Shown here: positions 7,003 to 62,762 of the stretch, one piece after another | How positions within the stretch are numbered: the stretch's first letter is position 1 | Layout of the letters: each line of letters starts with the position of its first letter | Sequence record: OP778610 | DNA: 64,000 nucleotides | Source of the DNA: Escherichia phage W70 | Strand: one strand, 5' to 3' | Made by a program: the position numbers and the translations under genes | The notes under the pieces: generated by a model | Database searches by the model: none | The model's input: the letters and a program-made list of their open reading frames with translations, nothing else | What the model was told of the DNA's origin: nothing

Positions 7003-10000
7003 ATGGCTGAATATAATGATAAGGTCGTGGAAGCATTCGTTACTGCCCCAGATCCTGTCGTAACTACCACTGGTGGTGGAGTTATTTTTGACGGTATTGA
7101 AACAGAAGATACTGTATCAACCCTGCTGATTGGTGATGGTACTGCATCCTCCCCTTTACAAGCGCAAGTCAAACTTTCTCGCCGTGCTGGTAACGCCCTG
7201 ACTATCGTTCAATCCGATACCGAGCAAGGCTTGTTTGCTACTGCCGGAGATGCTAAAGTTTCAGCTTCTCAAGTGAACATTGCAAAATACGTAACTGCGG
7301 AAGAAGCTGCTGCACAAGGCGATGCAGGTCTGGAAGGTATTTTGGTAGAGCCTGTCCATGCGACCACCACCGCAGTTGGCGATGCCTTGGAAATTACCGC
7401 AGATCCTTTGACGGCTAAAAAATCCCGCATTTCCCTGAAAGTTTCCCCTTCCGCAACCAACGCGTTATCTGTAGAGTCAGATGGATTGGCAGTTAAAGTC
7501 TCTCCTGCCGTTGACAACAGCCTGCAAGTCCGTGAAGGTGCACTTTACGTAGCTCCTGTTGGTGCTGATATTTCTCAAGACCCAGGTAACAAACTGGAAC
7601 AGCGTTCAGATGGACTGTTCGTAGAAACCATCAAAGGCGACAAAGGTGATCAGGGCGAGCAAGGACCAGAAGGTCCTCAAGGCCCAGCAGGGGAAGCTGG
7701 ACCTGCTGGACCACAGGGTGAAAAAGGCGACAAAGGCGATCAAGGTGAAGTCGGCCCTGCTGGCGCAACTGGCCCTGCTGGCCTGACTGGTGCAACTGGT
7801 CCTCGTGGTATAGAAGGACCTCGTGGCCCTGCTGGTATTGGTATTAATATCCTAGACACCCTTGCATCTGAAGACCAATTACCTTCTGTTGTTGATCTTT
7901 CGAATGGGGATACCTATGTAATAGGACAGAGTTTCTTTACCGTTATCACTGAAGGTGGTATCAAACAATGGAGAAACGTAGGTAACTTCGCTGGACCTGA
8001 AGGTCTTTCTGCATTTGAAGTTGCTGAAACCGCAGGCTTTGTTGGAACAGTTGATGACTGGTTGGCTACCCTTCGTGGTGCTGATGGAATCGGTCTGCAA
8101 TTACTCGGTTCTTTCCAACGAATTGAAGACCTTCCGGCAGAAGAGAACAACCCAGGCGATGCCTACATCATTCAAGAAAAGATGTATGTTTGGACTGGTG
8201 ATACAGATGGCTGGCAACCTGTAGGACAGATCGGTCCTGAAGGTCGTTCTGCTTATCAGGTCTGGCTGGCTAACGGGAACGTAGGTTCTCAGCGTGAATT
8301 CCTTGAATCACTGAAAGGTGAGAAAGGTGATACTGGCGATCAGGGTCCTCAGGGTATCCCAGGTGCAGATGGTAAAAATGCTAACGCCATTAATATCTTA
8401 GGTTCCGTTGCAGATCAGGCGAGTTTGCCAGAAGGTGCAGATGCAGGTGATGCTTACCTGATCGGTACTAACGTATTCGTTTCTGATGGTGCTGGCAACT
8501 GGCAAGACTTGGGATCTTTCCAAGGTCCGCAAGGTCCTACTGGTGCTAAAGGCGACAAGGGGGACAAAGGGGACAAAGGTGACAAAGGCGATAAAGGTGA
8601 TGACAACTATGCCATCGCAGTTGCTAACGGTTTCCAAGGATCAGTAAATGAATACCTTGCATCTATCAAGGGTGAGAAAGGTGACGTTGGTGCAACTGGC
8701 CCTCGTGGATTAGCTGGTCCACAAGGTGAACAAGGTCCTGTTGGTGCGGGTCTGAATATCCTTGGCTCAGTAGCTTCCGAAGACCAATTGCCTCAGACTG
8801 GTATTAGTGAAGGTGATGCTTATCTGATTGAAGCTGATCTTTATATCTTTACTGGCGGTCAGTGGACTAACGTTGGTAACATCAAAGGTCCCCAAGGGGA
8901 TGTAGGACCACAAGGTCCACAAGGTCCTATTGGTCTGACTGGTGCACAAGGACCGCAGGGTGCAACAGGGGCACAAGGTCCTGCTGGTCCCCAAGGTGAG
9001 ACTGGTCCACAAGGTGGTATTGGTCCACAGGGCGAGACTGGCGAGAAAGGTGACAAGGGCGATAAGGGTGATAAGGGTGATACTGGAATTGGTATCGTTG
9101 CTCGTGGTATTGTTGCAACTCAAGAAGCACTTCCTGCCGATGCCACCACTGGTGACTTCTACGTTGTAGAGTCTGAAGGTAATGGTTATGCTTGGGACGG
9201 CACTGCATGGGTACTGACTGGTCTTACTCGTGGACCTCAGGGTCTGAAGGGCGACAAAGGCGACACTGGTGAGAAAGGAGACAAAGGAGACAAAGGCGAC
9301 GCAGGTGATGCACTGAAGCTGAAAGGTTTGGTTGCAACCTCCGCTGAACTTCCTTCTACTGCTGAATTAGGTGACTTCTACGTAGCTGAAGACACTGGAA
9401 TCGGTTACGCTTGGGATGGCGTGGAATTCGTTTCTGCCGGAACCGTTAGAGGACCGCAAGGTGAAGTAGGGCCTCAGGGTGAAATTGGCCCTCAAGGACC
9501 GCAAGGCGAGAAGGGAGATGCTGGCGACCAAGGACCTCAAGGATTGGTCGGTGAAACAGGTGCAAAAGGTGATAAAGGGGATAAGGGTGACGTTGGCTCT
9601 GGTCTGATTCCGAGAGGAACTTTACCGTCTCAAGCAGACCTTCCTCAAACTGGTGAAGTTGGTGACTTCTACGTAGCTAACGATACTGGTATTGGATATG
9701 CTTTTGACGGAACTACATTCGTAGAAGCTGGCGTTGCCCGTGGTCCACAGGGTGAACAAGGACCTCAGGGTGAACAGGGACCTCAAGGTCTTAAAGGGGA
9801 TACTGGTGAAACAGGTGCTCAGGGACCTCAAGGTGCTCAAGGTGAGAAAGGTGATACCGGAGAACGTGGAGAGGTAGGTCCGCAAGGTGATCAGGGACCG
9901 CAAGGTGAGCAAGGTCCTCAGGGTGATATCGGACCAGGTGTAGAGATCATTGGACGATTTGATACCTCTGATGAATTACCTTCCACGGGTACTTTGGGTC

Positions 10001-10803
10001 AAGGTTACCTTATCCAAGGCGACTTCTGGGGTTGGACTGGTGCAGCATACGAGAACTTGGGTCGTATTCAAGGTCCGGTTGGACCAGTAGGTCCTACGGG
10101 TGACCAAGGACCACAAGGCCCTGTCGGTAACAAAGGCGATAAAGGCGACCAAGGGACCCTTTGGGTAGTTTTTGCTCGTGCACCAATGGTGAGCGATGGT
10201 CGTGTTAACGACCTGTACCTCAACTCTTCCACTCTGGAATATTACCGTAAAACTTCCGCAACGAACTGGGCACTGCTCGGATTCTTAGGTGGTGGTAACG
10301 TGTATGACGCACCAGGGGACGGAAAGCTGTATGTCCGTACTGATGGTGGTTGGGTTGAATTACCTACCGCAGAAGTTCTGGAAGCACCTCGTGATGGTAA
10401 CCAATACGTCCGTAAAGACGGCGCTTGGACAACTGTTACAGTTCCTGTAACGGAAGCACCACTTGAAGGTGGATTCTACGTCCGTGAAAATGGTGCGTGG
10501 GTTAAACTGGATCAGTACGATTTACGTGTTGTTGCTTCAACTGGTGCAATTGATGCAAGCTCTGGTAATGCTTGGACTTTAGATGGTACAACCAACAAGT
10601 CCTTGACTATCACCGGATTGCCAGCAGGAAGGGCTAAAACCATAGTTTTACGATTCACGGGTAACGGTGGTCAGATTAACTGGGATAGCCAGATCGCTTG
10701 GTCTAACGGAACAGCACCTACTCTCGGGGCTACTCGCACTATCCTAACCTTGTTCTGGGATGGTGAGTTCCTGACGGGTACTCAAGCAATGACTATAGGT
10801 TAA
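7003..10803 (+). CDS. collagen-like fibre protein with tail-fibre repeats
   Basis: 1266 aa; many Gly-X-Y tracts alternating with about eight copies of a roughly 50-aa module (ILGSVA..DQLP...GDAYLI...W.NVG) and three SAY...WL.SLKG tail-fibre-repeat motifs; non-collagenous C-terminal domain. Confidence 0.85.
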   Translation: MAEYNDKVVEAFVTAPDPVVTTTGGGVIFDGIETEDTVSTLLIGDGTASSPLQAQVKLSRRAGNALTIVQSDTEQGLFATAGDAKVSASQVNIAKYVTAEEAAAQGDAGLEGILVEPVHATTTAVGDALEITADPLTAKKSRISLKVSPSATNALSVESDGLAVKVSPAVDNSLQVREGALYVAPVGADISQDPGNKLEQRSDGLFVETIKGDKGDQGEQGPEGPQGPAGEAGPAGPQGEKGDKGDQGEVGPAGATGPAGLTGATGPRGIEGPRGPAGIGINILDTLASEDQLPSVVDLSNGDTYVIGQSFFTVITEGGIKQWRNVGNFAGPEGLSAFEVAETAGFVGTVDDWLATLRGADGIGLQLLGSFQRIEDLPAEENNPGDAYIIQEKMYVWTGDTDGWQPVGQIGPEGRSAYQVWLANGNVGSQREFLESLKGEKGDTGDQGPQGIPGADGKNANAINILGSVADQASLPEGADAGDAYLIGTNVFVSDGAGNWQDLGSFQGPQGPTGAKGDKGDKGDKGDKGDKGDDNYAIAVANGFQGSVNEYLASIKGEKGDVGATGPRGLAGPQGEQGPVGAGLNILGSVASEDQLPQTGISEGDAYLIEADLYIFTGGQWTNVGNIKGPQGDVGPQGPQGPIGLTGAQGPQGATGAQGPAGPQGETGPQGGIGPQGETGEKGDKGDKGDKGDTGIGIVARGIVATQEALPADATTGDFYVVESEGNGYAWDGTAWVLTGLTRGPQGLKGDKGDTGEKGDKGDKGDAGDALKLKGLVATSAELPSTAELGDFYVAEDTGIGYAWDGVEFVSAGTVRGPQGEVGPQGEIGPQGPQGEKGDAGDQGPQGLVGETGAKGDKGDKGDVGSGLIPRGTLPSQADLPQTGEVGDFYVANDTGIGYAFDGTTFVEAGVARGPQGEQGPQGEQGPQGLKGDTGETGAQGPQGAQGEKGDTGERGEVGPQGDQGPQGEQGPQGDIGPGVEIIGRFDTSDELPSTGTLGQGYLIQGDFWGWTGAAYENLGRIQGPVGPVGPTGDQGPQGPVGNKGDKGDQGTLWVVFARAPMVSDGRVNDLYLNSSTLEYYRKTSATNWALLGFLGGGNVYDAPGDGKLYVRTDGGWVELPTAEVLEAPRDGNQYVRKDGAWTTVTVPVTEAPLEGGFYVRENGAWVKLDQYDLRVVASTGAIDASSGNAWTLDGTTNKSLTITGLPAGRAKTIVLRFTGNGGQINWDSQIAWSNGTAPTLGATRTILTLFWDGEFLTGTQAMTIG
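8551..8604 (+). repeat. in-frame 9-bp tandem repeat encoding (GDK)n
   Basis: Six consecutive ggNgaYaaR nonamers encoding GDKGDKGDKGDKGDKGDD; shorter copies near 9049, 9246, 9570 and 10129. Confidence 0.8.
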
Positions 10804-34167: not shown

Positions 34168-34203
34168 AGAAAAGGCGCTCAAATGAGCGCCTTTATTTTT
34201 ATC
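34168..34203. terminator. bidirectional rho-independent terminator between convergent modules
   Basis: aaaggcgctc-aaatg-agcgccttt hairpin flanked by an A-run on one side and a T-run on the other. Confidence 0.7.
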
Positions 34204-34215
34204 TAAATTTTACGA

Positions 34216-35391
34216 TCAAAACGGAATATCGTCGTCAAAATCCATATCATCTACAGACATATTTACATGTCCTTCAATATCAGGGGTAGGTGAATCTTCT
34301 GCTGACGGAGTTAACTGCGGTTCCGGCTCAGGTTTCTTTTCCTCTTGCTTAGGAGTTGAAGCACCGTTACGGATCTTATCTTCCAATTGACAGATGAATC
34401 GGAAATTCTCTTCAGTCTTAGCAATAAAGGTTTCGATATTGTCACGACCCCAACGGGCAGAAAGAATGCCACACTGGCCTAAACGAGCACCGAAAGAGTA
34501 ATCATCCATAGATTTAAACTCTTCACGCAGTTTTGCTTTGATCGAATCCATCGCTGCAAGAACTTGTTCTACGATCACACCCTGATTTGCAATAGTTTCA
34601 TCAGGGAACATTGCATCGGTAATAGATAGTGCATTACCTAAACGAATAGGTAGATCATCTTTACCTTTACCTGAACGTGATCCTGTTCCAGTACTTGCAC
34701 CTTTTGGACCGTAAGCTTTAAAGCCTGTAACCGTACCATCATCTGAACGAACACCTGCAATACGACCACCTTCTGTAATCTGACCCGTCTGTTCATCAGT
34801 GAGGTTTACAGTAACTTCTGTGCCGTCTTCCAGCTTAACAACTACCTTATTGCCTTCGATAGATGTGATATCACCATAAATCTTCTTAGCTGCACCACCA
34901 GACGGCTTTTGCTGCTGTTGGGAACCACTTGATTGCTGCTGTTGCTGACGAGGCTCACGAGCACCGGATGCGTCAGTAATCTTGATACGTGCTTTCTTAC
35001 CTTCTGTAGAAGAACCTTGACTACCATCTTGTTTGGTATAGGTCTTGATAACAACAGGTAAACGAATTTTCATACCCTCTTTAAGATCGGTGTAACCACC
35101 TTCAGGATTTTTAATCTGGAACTGATTCTCATACTTCAGATTTTTAACTTCACCCTCACCAAAAGAAATCCATGCTTGATCTTCACCTTCTTTAAGAAGA
35201 ACCGCATAGCGGTGGGTATTGTTAATGCTTTTCTGCTGACCAGTATTCTTGTCTTTGAAGGTAGTCACTCGTGGGCTACCATCTTCATTAATACGTTTGA
35301 TCATGATACGTTCAATCGTACCTGCTGCAATGTTTACTGTGGTATCGGAAACAGCATCGTATACAGCATTGATAACTTTAACTTCAGACAT
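34216..35391 (-). CDS. ssb: single-stranded DNA-binding protein-like, with E. coli SSB-type acidic tip
   Basis: 391 aa; Gln/Gly-rich linker (QQQQQSSGSQQQQKPSGG); C-terminus DDMDFDDDIPF matches the E. coli SSB tip MDFDDDIPF as I recall it. Confidence 0.55.
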   Translation of the reverse strand: MSEVKVINAVYDAVSDTTVNIAAGTIERIMIKRINEDGSPRVTTFKDKNTGQQKSINNTHRYAVLLKEGEDQAWISFGEGEVKNLKYENQFQIKNPEGGYTDLKEGMKIRLPVVIKTYTKQDGSQGSSTEGKKARIKITDASGAREPRQQQQQSSGSQQQQKPSGGAAKKIYGDITSIEGNKVVVKLEDGTEVTVNLTDEQTGQITEGGRIAGVRSDDGTVTGFKAYGPKGASTGTGSRSGKGKDDLPIRLGNALSITDAMFPDETIANQGVIVEQVLAAMDSIKAKLREEFKSMDDYSFGARLGQCGILSARWGRDNIETFIAKTEENFRFICQLEDKIRNGASTPKQEEKKPEPEPQLTPSAEDSPTPDIEGHVNMSVDDMDFDDDIPF

Positions 35392-35855: not shown

Positions 35856-35909
35856 CTTCTTTCCTCTTTTGTTTAAGTGGGGCCATTATGCCCCACACTT
35901 AACTTTCTG
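35856..35909 (-). promoter_or_regulatory. sigma70-like promoter candidate overlapping a hairpin
   Basis: On the - strand, TTGACA, 17-nt spacer, CATAAT; the -10 sits in the loop of a GTGGGGC/GCCCCAC stem. Confidence 0.3.
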
Positions 35910-36482
35910 TCAAGGACGTTTCGGTGGACTAACGACACCTTTTTTAGATAAAGGTAATTCGTCTGCATCTTTTCCACGGAGAGATTCTAACCACTCATCT
36001 AAAGATAGAGGTACTTTGCCAACACCCTTGGACCATACAGATAAGCAATACAGGTCGTATGCAGATGGGCCAGCATCACCCTTGTCACCATACGGCCCTT
36101 TTAAACTCGCCAACCAATCCTTTTCATTCAGTGGGATAGTGCCTGGATCTTCTTGTCGAAGAACTCTTAGGTATGTTTCATAAGCAGACTCTCCACGGGG
36201 ACCCATTGGACCAGGTAAACCTTGCGGTCCCTTTGCATAGTCTAAATATGCAGACTTTGAACCATCATTGACCACTGAAACTTTATACAATGACCAAGCC
36301 AACAGAACTATCCAACAAGCAAACAATGCAAGCGGGTAAGGGATCATTGAAGTAAAGAATGACAGGGCTAAAATTACAACCTTGTTCTTGTGATCACGAC
36401 GGAAAGCGATGATCACAGGGGCTAACCAGATAGCAAAGATAACCCACGCAGATAAGATAAACAACCAACTAATGTATTCCAT
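35910..36482 (-). CDS. membrane protein: superinfection-immunity-like N-terminus fused to collagen and tail-fibre repeats
   Basis: 190 aa; N-terminal about 65 aa with two hydrophobic helices and motif PVIIAFRRDHKNKVVILALSFF; then GPQGLPGPMGPRG and two SAY...WL.SL(K/R)G repeats like those in the 7003-10803 fibre protein. Confidence 0.6.
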   Translation of the reverse strand: MEYISWLFILSAWVIFAIWLAPVIIAFRRDHKNKVVILALSFFTSMIPYPLALFACWIVLLAWSLYKVSVVNDGSKSAYLDYAKGPQGLPGPMGPRGESAYETYLRVLRQEDPGTIPLNEKDWLASLKGPYGDKGDAGPSAYDLYCLSVWSKGVGKVPLSLDEWLESLRGKDADELPLSKKGVVSPPKRP

Positions 36483-36670
36483 TAAGCCTCCTCAGTATCG
36501 TCTTTAAAGTAATCTAACATCCAACTCTCTACAGGTTTCGCATAGTAACCCGTTCGCCCTTTCTTTTGGAACTCCATAACAATTTCATTTGCAATACCTT
36601 TTGTGATTGCGATCCCGATCAGTGCACCACCAGGCCCCATTACTGCATGTGAACTAAGATCATTACTCAT
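36482..36670 (-). CDS. hypothetical small protein
   Basis: 62 aa ORF, ATGA overlap with the downstream gene. Confidence 0.4.
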   Translation of the reverse strand: MSNDLSSHAVMGPGGALIGIAITKGIANEIVMEFQKKGRTGYYAKPVESWMLDYFKDDTEEA

Positions 36671-36962
36671 TTTTAACCCCCTTCATTTTATCTCTTAAAC
36701 TTTGAGCATCCCACGTATAACCTGAGGAGATACCTTTTTCACGTTCACTATCTTTGAACTTGCAAATTACAGATTTTGCTTCACCATCAACAACAACCGC
36801 ATAACTGTTGTAGTAATTGTGTTGCTTCTTGCAAAATTCGTGTAACTCCTTGACCTCTATTGGCATCAGAGAAGGTAGATTTTTGTATCGCTTTGTCTGA
36901 TCATCTTCACCCTCTCCGCAACCAACAAGAAGAAGTATACATAAAATGATTAACCTTTTCAA
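36663..36962 (-). CDS. lipoprotein (putative)
   Basis: 99 aa; signal peptide with lipobox MKRLIILCILLLVGC; TTG start. Confidence 0.55.
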   Translation of the reverse strand: MKRLIILCILLLVGCGEGEDDQTKRYKNLPSLMPIEVKELHEFCKKQHNYYNSYAVVVDGEAKSVICKFKDSEREKGISSGYTWDAQSLRDKMKGVKNE

Positions 36963-37114
36963 TAGCTACCCCCAAAATATTTTGTAGTCTCTACTGCAAA
37001 TATTGTCCCAAGTATGAACCATGTCGCACTTAGCACGTTGAAAGGTAAAAACCTCGATCCTGCAAGAGAAACCATAATAAAAAACGTTACAAAAATCTCT
37101 GGAGGAATCATCAT
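36959..37114 (-). CDS. small hydrophobic protein (ORF missing from the track)
   Basis: 51 aa ORF MMIPPEIFVTFFIMVSLAGSRFLPFNVLSATWFILGTIFAVETTKYFGGSY; ATG overlaps the upstream stop (ATGA) and its stop overlaps the lipoprotein start. Confidence 0.3.
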   Translation of the reverse strand: MMIPPEIFVTFFIMVSLAGSRFLPFNVLSATWFILGTIFAVETTKYFGGSY

Positions 37115-62245: not shown

Positions 62246-62399
62246 TTTGTGTATACCTCTTGTATTTCTGCGATTAATGTTTCAGAGGAACTGGCAATCT
62301 CTGCTCGGACTTCCTCTGCTTTTTCTTTGTCTTCAAATAAGGTTGGATGAATTTGAGCATCCTCTCCACAATACAGACACAGTATAGCATAATACTTCA

Positions 62400-62762
62400 T
62401 TACTCGTTACCTTTTTCTTCTTCATGCGGTTTAACAATAATCTCTTCAATAATCTTAGGGTCAATGCTTTTAGTATACATAAAAGTATAAAGCGCCGTTT
62501 TCAAAGATGCACGTTTACCATAGTAATGATCTGTGATGCCATTCTGTTTTGACAGTTTATGAATCTCCACTATTTTACTTTCAACTTCTTCGTTGGAGAT
62601 CTCTATATACTCGACTGCTGACATGCGTTCGATAAATATTGCATTAAGACCGTATAACTTGGCATCTCGCTCCACGTACTCTTTAAATCGCTGCCACTCT
62701 ACCTCATCTTTGATAAGGTCTGCGATCTTAAAGATTACTGGATGTTTGTGTGATTCAGTCAT
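62400..62762 (-). CDS. hypothetical protein
   Basis: 120 aa ORF. Confidence 0.5.
   Translation of the reverse strand: MTESHKHPVIFKIADLIKDEVEWQRFKEYVERDAKLYGLNAIFIERMSAVEYIEISNEEVESKIVEIHKLSKQNGITDHYYGKRASLKTALYTFMYTKSIDPKIIEEIIVKPHEEEKGNE

Follow-up and report, generated by a model that had tools for sequence, protein, structure and literature searches.

The gene at positions 35910 to 36482 of a window of 64,000 nucleotides from Escherichia phage W70 (sequence record OP778610) encodes, on the minus strand, a protein of 190 amino acids which, judged by sequence comparison, appears to be an Imm-type protein lengthened by a stalk of collagen triplets and fibre-type modules and by a conserved end peptide. 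The product is identical to A73_117 of Escherichia phage A73 (OP778609.1), where it is annotated as a hypothetical protein, and is referred to by that name below; phage A73 is classed in the Vequintavirinae, proposed genus Septuagintavirus. Window coordinates correspond to the coordinates of the OP778609.1 record plus 1 (100% identity over the 12 kb compared). The reading preferred here, to which a probability of roughly 0.4 is given, is that A73_117 is an inner-membrane protein of the T4 Imm kind which is lengthened by a trimer-forming stalk and blocks later phages. An exclusion role is plausible and would rest on the Imm-like domain, not on mimicry of the virion fibre.

The open reading frame (ORF) starts with ATG, has the Shine-Dalgarno sequence GAGGAGG 4 nt further 5', and overlaps with its start codon the stop codon of a preceding ORF of 62 amino acids (TAATG). 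The gene and the parts of its product, with the evidence used to delimit them, are as follows.

35910..36482, minus strand: gene of the Imm-like membrane protein with collagen/fibre-module stalk, 190 amino acids plus stop codon (ORF list)
36279..36482, minus strand: Imm_superinfect-like two-helix membrane domain, residues 1-68 (hydropathy, Pfam, hhalign, AF2, Foldseek)
36231..36284, minus strand: juxtamembrane segment including the collapsed remnant of a third module (SAY...(Y)AKG), residues 67-84 (alignment with relatives)
36189..36230, minus strand: first Gly-X-Y run, GPQGLPGPMGPRGE, residues 85-98 (5 triplets when counted to residue 99; weak Pfam Collagen match on residues 85-97)
36096..36188, minus strand: fibre-type module 1, SAYETYLRVLRQEDPGTIPLNEKDWLASLKG, residues 99-129 (regular-expression scan, PHROG tail-fibre profiles)
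36066..36095, minus strand: second Gly-X-Y run, residues 130-139 (4 triplets when counted over residues 129-140)
35973..36065, minus strand: fibre-type module 2, SAYDLYCLSVWSKGVGKVPLSLDEWLESLRG, residues 140-170 (regular-expression scan)
35913..35972, minus strand: conserved C-terminal peptide, KDADELPLSKKGVVSPPKRP, residues 171-190 (family motif DADE[IL]PLSKxGV and basic end)

Comparison with the orthologs of A5-4, A7_1, LTH01 and UPEC06 (Nei-Gojobori method, five Septuagintaviruses in total) identified a constrained coding gene under purifying selection. The ratio of nonsynonymous to synonymous substitution rates (dN/dS) was 0.18 for the whole gene, 0.10 for the membrane domain, 0.18 for module 1 and 0.32 for the Gly-X-Y and juxtamembrane parts; module 2 (0.03) was the most constrained part of the spacer between the membrane domain and the end peptide, and the end peptide showed zero nonsynonymous changes among the five. 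Positive selection on the spacer was ruled out, as dN/dS did not exceed 0.32 in any segment. The synonymous rate of the spacer (0.30) was about fivefold higher than the rates of the membrane domain (0.06) and the end peptide (0.04), which hints at mosaic exchange of spacers or at added constraint on the flanks.

Regarding previous annotation, A73_117 was assigned to phrog_15593 (1.6e-21), a group with unassigned function. The NCBIfam search yielded noise only (collagen adhesin Lcl and a selenoprotein), and when solved structures were searched by sequence, neither the C-terminal part nor the profiles of the N-terminal domain and of the module gave a meaningful match. The gene is annotated as hypothetical in the A73, CR3 and P7_Pc records, and the Septuagintavirus, P7_Pc, KEC4 and Jab papers make no mention of such a gene. 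The original prediction did not recognise the architecture, and no description of it was found in the literature searched.

The Imm-like membrane domain

Hydropathy analysis of A73_117 revealed a first hydrophobic segment at residues 3-27 (transmembrane segment TM1) and a second one at residues 35-66, which are separated by the basic loop RRDHKNK (residues 28-34); the second segment is interrupted at MIPYP (residues 45-49). The top Pfam match of the full protein was Imm_superinfect (PF14373), which covered residues 18-43 with an E-value of 0.0015 and 18.8 bits, and residues 1-69 alone matched the same model with an E-value of 3.9e-4 and 20.7 bits. The profile comparison anticipated in the original prediction thus returned the expected family as top match, but below the gathering cut-off of 27.9 bits, and formal membership in PF14373 is not reached by A73_117 itself. 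Among the aligned N-termini of the family, PF14373 was the best Pfam match in 11 out of 11 (best E-value 2.3e-6), and precomputed PF14373 matches exist for several orthologs. The Imm label has already been attached automatically by databases to some orthologs; those of CR8 and PBES02 are named 'Superinfection immunity protein' in UniRef. The group phrog_1039 ('immunity to superinfection') also matched A73_117 (8.9e-6).

For profile-profile comparison, the T4 Imm sequence was taken from NC_000866 and an alignment of the T4-type Imm family was built for hhalign. The alignment of family N-termini matched T4 Imm alone with a probability of 89%, both helices being aligned end to end, and the T4 Imm family alignment with a probability of 91% (E-value 1e-6, 60 aligned columns, both helices). 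In these alignments the second helix of the A73_117 family carries a six-residue insertion with an invariant proline relative to T4 Imm. Invariant positions of the family N-terminal alignment are P22, N33, I37, P48 and L61, and near-invariant ones are I25, A26, R29, H31 and Y66. The motif P-x-x-I-A-x-x-R, followed by a short basic loop between two hydrophobic helices, is present and was aligned to LPWFIALMRGSKS of T4 Imm.

The AlphaFold2 (AF2) model of residues 1-66 has predicted local distance difference test (pLDDT) values of 80-88, with helices at residues 2-19, 21-28, 34-44 and 50-65. When this model was compared with BFVD using Foldseek, the two best non-self matches were phage Imm proteins, namely those of Serratia phage PS2 (TMt 0.77, root-mean-square deviation 1.9 Å, probability 1.00, E-value 0.13) and Aeromonas phage pIS4-A (probability 0.92), with the caveat that a two-helix hairpin is a simple fold. 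Residues 1-68 are accordingly described here as a remote homologue of T4 Imm, and the proposal that the N-terminal 65 or so residues resemble small superinfection-immunity membrane proteins is borne out as a remote but real similarity (top match to PF14373, 91% in hhalign, Imm proteins in Foldseek).

The composition of the protein, two hydrophobic helices combined with a charged, basic C-terminal end, would also be compatible with a holin- or antiholin-like factor of lysis timing, in which a two-helix protein with a charged C-terminal domain controls or senses permeabilisation. T4 Imm has been likened to a holin in a review (PMC6832632), and one family member yielded a weak match to Phage_holin_10 (E-value 0.053). 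The consistent best match is nevertheless Imm_superinfect, the N-in/C-in topology of a holin would place the +4 loop in the periplasm, and the gene is not adjacent to the endolysin or the spanins. We know of no holin that carries a collagen domain. Among the explanations considered, lysis timing is regarded as the least probable.

Stalk, end peptide and the virion fibre

C-terminal of the membrane domain, A73_117 consists of two Gly-X-Y runs alternating with two modules, as had been read from the sequence originally (collagen Gly-X-Y plus two SAY..YL.....WL.SL(K/R)G motifs), and both the triplet runs and the two module copies were recovered. Directly after the membrane domain, residues 77-84 form a collapsed third module copy (SAYLD..YAKG), for which relatives carry the longer form SAYLDSKYLEYAKG. 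PHROG tail-fibre profiles (families 19976, 15437, 4440 and 3904) matched residues 62-140 with E-values from 2.3e-7 to 6.9e-3, several of them between 2.3e-7 and 8.4e-5. The profile comparison of the C-terminal part therefore held for the tail-fibre families but not for Pfam Collagen (PF01391), which scored 14.7 bits on A73_117, below its cut-off of 27.2 bits, with runs of only five and four triplets; precomputed PF01391 matches are carried by orthologs with 10-13 triplets. No Pfam model exists for the SAY/WL module; PF03406 (Phage_fiber_2), a suspected candidate, was absent even at an E-value of 10. In the AF2 model, module 1 forms a helix-loop-helix at low confidence.

The family was collected by phmmer with residues 1-70 against 1.84 billion representatives, by a profile search of a 5.8-billion collection and by tblastn of a phage collection. 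It is small, with about 35 clusters, and all the genomic contexts inspected were Vequintavirinae-like. The phmmer search yielded 8 matches only, and a scan of IMG/VR added only 4 further loci. The family members agree in architecture at their two ends, opening with the Imm-like domain (about 68 amino acids) and closing with the motif DADE(I/L)PLSKxGV and a basic terminus. The end peptide was present in 33 of the 34 tabulated sequences (P0006 being the exception) and is shorter in P0005 and P0007; it is kept whatever the type of spacer. A correspondence between the end peptide and the C-terminal tail of T4 Imm is unsupported, as the hhalign alignment does not extend beyond the end of helix 2. 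The spacer ranges from 0 to about 100 residues in length, and the shortest family members have 85-89 amino acids. The following types of spacer were distinguished.

No spacer: P0006 (also without end peptide) and P0007
Spacer of 4-13 Gly-X-Y triplets only: Certrevirus-like phages and Salmonella phage SSBI34
One SAY/WL module: P0003 and P0008
Two modules plus the remnant of a third: A73 clade

The single module of P0003 is orthologous to module 1, and that of P0008 is similar to module 2. Among close relatives, the lengths of the collagen-bearing proteins differ by whole triplets (105, 108, 114, 117, 120, 123 and 126 amino acids). Since the spacer varies by triplets and by modules, the fibre-type modules are an optional spacer element that occurs in few lineages only.

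The virion protein used for comparison, which is not part of the proposed system, is the following.

7003..10803, plus strand: virion collagen-like fibre, 1266 amino acids, phrog_3904, with Collagen and Fibritin_C domains

The most abundant proteins of the W70 virion include one that agrees with this fibre in PHROG family (phrog_3904) and in mass (129 kDa; PMC11370258). When all six frames of the window were scanned with the expression SA[YF]...[WFY]L.[ST][LI][KR]G, the module motif was found in only two ORFs, namely in two copies in 35910-36482 and in three in 7003-10803, which confirms the earlier observation that the motif is otherwise confined to the fibre. A rough calculation based on residue frequencies predicts about 0.15 chance matches for the core heptad and less than 0.01 once the SAY prefix is included; motif sharing is therefore not due to chance. 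The three fibre modules (8008-8079, 8248-8319 and 8605-8673) are of the canonical 23-24-residue type, the third having NY instead of SAY, and BLASTP of A73_117 against the fibre yielded an E-value of 9e-7. The fibre also contains repeated 'LP....GDAYLI....Y.W.G..W...G' units.

The canonical module, G.SAYE.A...GF.GTE.EWLASLKG (24 residues), is widespread in unrelated phage fibres, including those of Pseudomonas phages. Fibres of unrelated Listeria, Streptomyces and Ralstonia phages show it interspersed with short Gly-X-Y runs, and it also occurs in the A73 and CR3 virion fibres. The modules of A73_117 have 31 residues, with a loop that is 7 residues longer and of other sequence, and lack the canonical GF.GT form; those of A73_117, P0003 and P0008 have in common a different loop that is 4-7 residues longer than the canonical one. 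Searching the phage collection by tblastn with A73_117 returned foreign fibres and not the A73 fibre gene. At the DNA level, blastn of the gene against the fibre gene found no similarity in the module-coding parts, the only matches being Gly-X-Y-coding ones of at most 32 nt; the sole similarity to the collagen-coding DNA of the fibre lies in the second Gly-X-Y run (32 nt, 81%). Modules 1 and 2 have no DNA similarity to each other, and no internal repeat was detected by blastn. Recent transfer or duplication was ruled out on these grounds. The repeats of A73_117 had been regarded as the phage's own tail-fibre repeats; this part of the original prediction is not upheld, because the modules are a 31-residue divergent variant, the phage's own fibre is missing from the tblastn results and the module-coding DNA shows no similarity. 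They are a divergent variant of a widespread module.

The same data bear on the proposal that A73_117 serves as a fibre decoy, or, in an extended form, as an assembly nucleator: a cytoplasmic C-terminal part could pair with the 1266-residue fibre chains and either template their trimerisation at the membrane or titrate them, or a periplasmic one could mimic the fibre and thereby occupy a receptor. Collagen triplets and SAY/WL modules are indeed common to A73_117 and the fibre, the Certrevirus and Septuagintavirus members checked encode a collagen-like fibre, and the topology of A73_117 is tentative. However, the virion fibre of CR3 has SAY/WL modules whereas its ortholog of A73_117, CR3_038, has none. 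Modules are an optional part in the family, where 0, 1 or 2 copies occur, and two members (P0006 and P0007) are without any collagen. The 31-residue modules are no nearer to the phage's own fibre than to unrelated phage fibres, and the absence of DNA similarity in the module-coding parts likewise argues against this explanation. The fibre moreover has trimerisation repeats of its own, three foldon-like repeats near its C-terminus (Fibritin_C, 1.3e-10), and the positive-inside rule puts the stalk of A73_117 in the periplasm. The decoy idea is thus not sustained, and a decoy or nucleator function is considered improbable.

Genomic context and proposed role

The gene is the third-last of a minus-strand block of about 29 kb, which also encodes a primase/helicase, a DNA polymerase and a protein resembling single-stranded DNA-binding (SSB) proteins and which ends at a bidirectional terminator (34171-34194). 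The early-region location that had been assumed is therefore correct insofar as the gene lies in the non-structural arm of replication genes. In relatives the order of the cassette is: 133-residue protein, 51-residue membrane protein, lipoprotein, ORF of 59-62 amino acids (in some lineages only), A73_117 homologue, DUF7325, SSB-like gene. The position upstream of the DUF7325 and SSB-like genes is kept in all relatives examined. The neighbours of the gene in the window are as follows.

36482..36670, minus strand: ORF of 62 amino acids without family match, between the lipoprotein gene and A73_117 (Septuagintavirus-like genomes only)
36663..36962, minus strand: lipoprotein gene, 99 amino acids, TTG start, lipobox LLVGC, two conserved Cys, phrog_15849 (usual companion of the family)
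36959..37114, minus strand: membrane protein of 51 amino acids, phrog_22594 (kept in the cassette in most relatives examined)

In most relatives the lipoprotein gene directly precedes the Imm-like gene, the start of which it overlaps in Certrevirus-like genomes. A7_1 has lost the lipoprotein gene by deletion, and L014 and L024 lack it too. Besides phrog_15849, the lipoprotein yielded only a weak match to EexN (0.054).

This neighbourhood raises the possibility of an envelope bridge, in which the end peptide would bind the outer-membrane lipoprotein across the periplasm and provide a spanin- or Tol-like tether for lysis or for envelope stabilisation, e.g. against lysis from without. The position of the phrog_15849 gene directly upstream in most relatives, with the overlap in Certrevirus-like genomes, is in line with such a bridge, as is the observation that P0006, the sole member without the end peptide, is also without the lipoprotein; a rigid trimeric stalk would suit bridging. 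Against it stand a canonical Rz-like spanin pair encoded elsewhere, also for the close relative KEC4 (PMC12942863), a gene order opposite to that of two-component spanins, an anchor formed by an Imm-like hairpin instead of one N-terminal transmembrane helix, the retention of the end peptide in A7_1 and L014 although the lipoprotein is lost, and a stalk length of 0 to about 100 residues, which is at odds with a fixed span. A bridge is therefore rated as unlikely. A role as two-component spanin (Rz/Rz1) in the strict sense was rejected on account of the hairpin anchor, the separation from the upstream lipoprotein gene by the 62-residue ORF, the absence of that gene in A7_1 and the Rz-like pair elsewhere.

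In the virion proteome of W70, a type of data set that easily misses membrane proteins, the 28 proteins include none with a mass near 21 kDa and none of phrog_15593 (PMC11370258), which indirectly indicates that A73_117 is not a virion protein. Because of its membrane hairpin, its location in the replication arm and its absence from the W70 virion list, A73_117 is not considered part of the virion fibre.

According to the preferred reading, that of an Imm-type protein with a periplasmic stalk, the topology would follow from the distribution of charges. The N-terminus is free of Lys and Arg in 17 of 17 members scored, and the inter-helix loop of the same members has 3-5 Lys or Arg; by the positive-inside rule, this distribution assigns the loop to the cytoplasmic side and the C-terminal part to the periplasmic side of the membrane. 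The basic loop would thus stay cytoplasmic, and the C-terminal 124 residues would be exported. By analogy, three chains may then zip into a short, beaded triple helix: phage collagen-like fibre proteins (E. coli prophage EPcl) have been shown to be trimeric (PMC3368898), and trimerisation of the A73_117 stalk is proposed for that reason. The triple helix would present three end peptides at an estimated (our own estimate) 10-20 nm above the inner membrane. After infection, genome delivery by later related phages would be blocked at the inner-membrane step, in a T4 Imm-like manner. The stalk would act as a length-adjustable spacer that sets reach and valency, with the fibre-type modules as structural building blocks that do not mimic the phage's own fibre. 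The end peptide would be the most likely contact element; candidate targets are the arriving phage's trimeric tail tip, a component of the host envelope and the adjacent lipoprotein.

Several points weigh against this reading. The score of A73_117 (18.8-20.7 bits) misses the PF14373 cut-off, and the PADLOC library search matched nothing. With its 33 residues and a conserved proline break, the second hydrophobic segment could fold as a re-entrant hairpin, in which case the C-terminal part would remain in the cytoplasm. For residues 69-190 the AF2 confidence stays under 50, and Gly-X-Y runs of four to five triplets are short for a stable triple helix. T4 Imm works without a periplasmic extension, so that the stalk of A73_117 has no precedent there, and P0006 has neither spacer nor end peptide. 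The ease with which membrane proteins escape virion proteomes counts on the same side.

A more specific version, in which the membrane-anchored periplasmic collagen trimer stands as a kind of fence post whose end peptides capture or misdirect the three-fold tail tip or the ejection proteins of a competitor ahead of their arrival at the inner membrane, is given about as little credence as the envelope bridge. If it were true, the choice of competitors shut out would depend on the length of the spacer (0-13 triplets, 0-2 modules), and the family would offer a first mechanistic handle on Imm-type immunity as well as the first use by a phage of fibre building blocks against other phages. Reviews go no further than stating that T4 Imm changes the site of injection and requires a partner.

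More generally, the family constitutes a natural series of Imm-like proteins with a constant membrane domain, a varying, presumably periplasmic spacer and a short end peptide, and such a series would allow the contacts of an Imm-type protein to be probed directly. Collagen triplets and the SAY/WL module are apparently movable units for trimer formation, the use of which is not confined to virions. Septuagintaviruses and Certreviruses have been isolated as candidates for therapy or biocontrol, and an exclusion gene would affect the design of cocktails. Should exclusion fail as an explanation, a small membrane-protein family would still have been described.

Further features of the region were recorded. 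A near-consensus sigma-70-type promoter-like site (35885-35913, minus strand; TTGACA, 17 nt, CATAAT, 11/12) overlaps the stop codon of A73_117, and a GC-rich hairpin (35877-35896) lies directly upstream of the DUF7325 and SSB-like genes. The protein of 391 amino acids encoded at 34216-35391 (minus strand, phrog_4477) has a poly-Gln/Ser-rich middle part and a C-terminal tail, DDMDFDDDIPF, an acidic tip of the kind characteristic of SSB proteins in bacteria. A second small lipoprotein (about 62271-62537, minus strand, 88 amino acids, lipobox ISGC, phrog_902) is encoded at the start of the minus-strand block. Outside the window, the OP778609.1 record contains a canonical, Rz-like spanin-type pair (141251-141610, phrog_4297, and 141610-141909, phrog_1267, the latter a lipoprotein) and an endolysin gene (phrog_465, record positions 112708-113091); the spanin genes and the endolysin are far apart, distant from A73_117 and annotated as hypothetical or 'peptidoglycan hydrolase'.

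Comparison with known systems

With T4 Imm and PF14373, A73_117 has in common the two-helix hairpin, helix 1 ending in a P-x-(I/F)-I-A-x-x-R motif, a short basic inter-helix loop, a second helix of the W...WS type and the encoding by a virulent myovirus among non-structural genes. It differs in size, with 190 versus 57-100 amino acids, only the shortest family members (85-89 amino acids) being in the same size class. Further differences from T4 Imm are the 6-residue insertion with an invariant proline in the second helix, the 124-residue extension of collagen and fibre modules, and the distinct end peptide.

Regarding envelope proteins with other mechanisms, T4 Spackle is a periplasmic inhibitor of the gp5 lysozyme and the product of an early gene, and T5 Llp is a lipoprotein that blocks FhuA (PMC7677548, PMC9586334). 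Both are phage envelope proteins which are made after infection and directed against incoming phages, and A73_117 is adjoined by a lipoprotein and a small membrane protein; unlike the proposed role of A73_117, however, their mechanisms involve no membrane-anchored stalk, and no sequence relationship was found.

The collagen-like fibres (A73 fibre, CR3_008, Listeria LPJP1, Streptomyces Kradal tailspike and Ralstonia RSF1) resemble A73_117 in having Gly-X-Y runs broken by the same helix-loop-helix module; the EPcl proteins (PMC3368898) are of a kind related to these SAY/WL collagen-like fibres. In contrast to the fibres, A73_117 has only two modules and nine triplets, is anchored by a membrane hairpin and is without a receptor-binding or attachment domain.

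An analogy only is offered by the membrane-anchored cellular collagens. In the animal transmembrane collagens XIII, XVII, XXIII and XXV, in MARCO and SR-A, and in Bucl8 of Burkholderia, a membrane anchor is followed by an interrupted collagen triple helix that projects from the membrane, and trimerisation is the organising principle. Their anchors are unrelated to that of A73_117, their size is much greater, and they belong to cells, whereas A73_117 is encoded among the non-structural genes of a phage.

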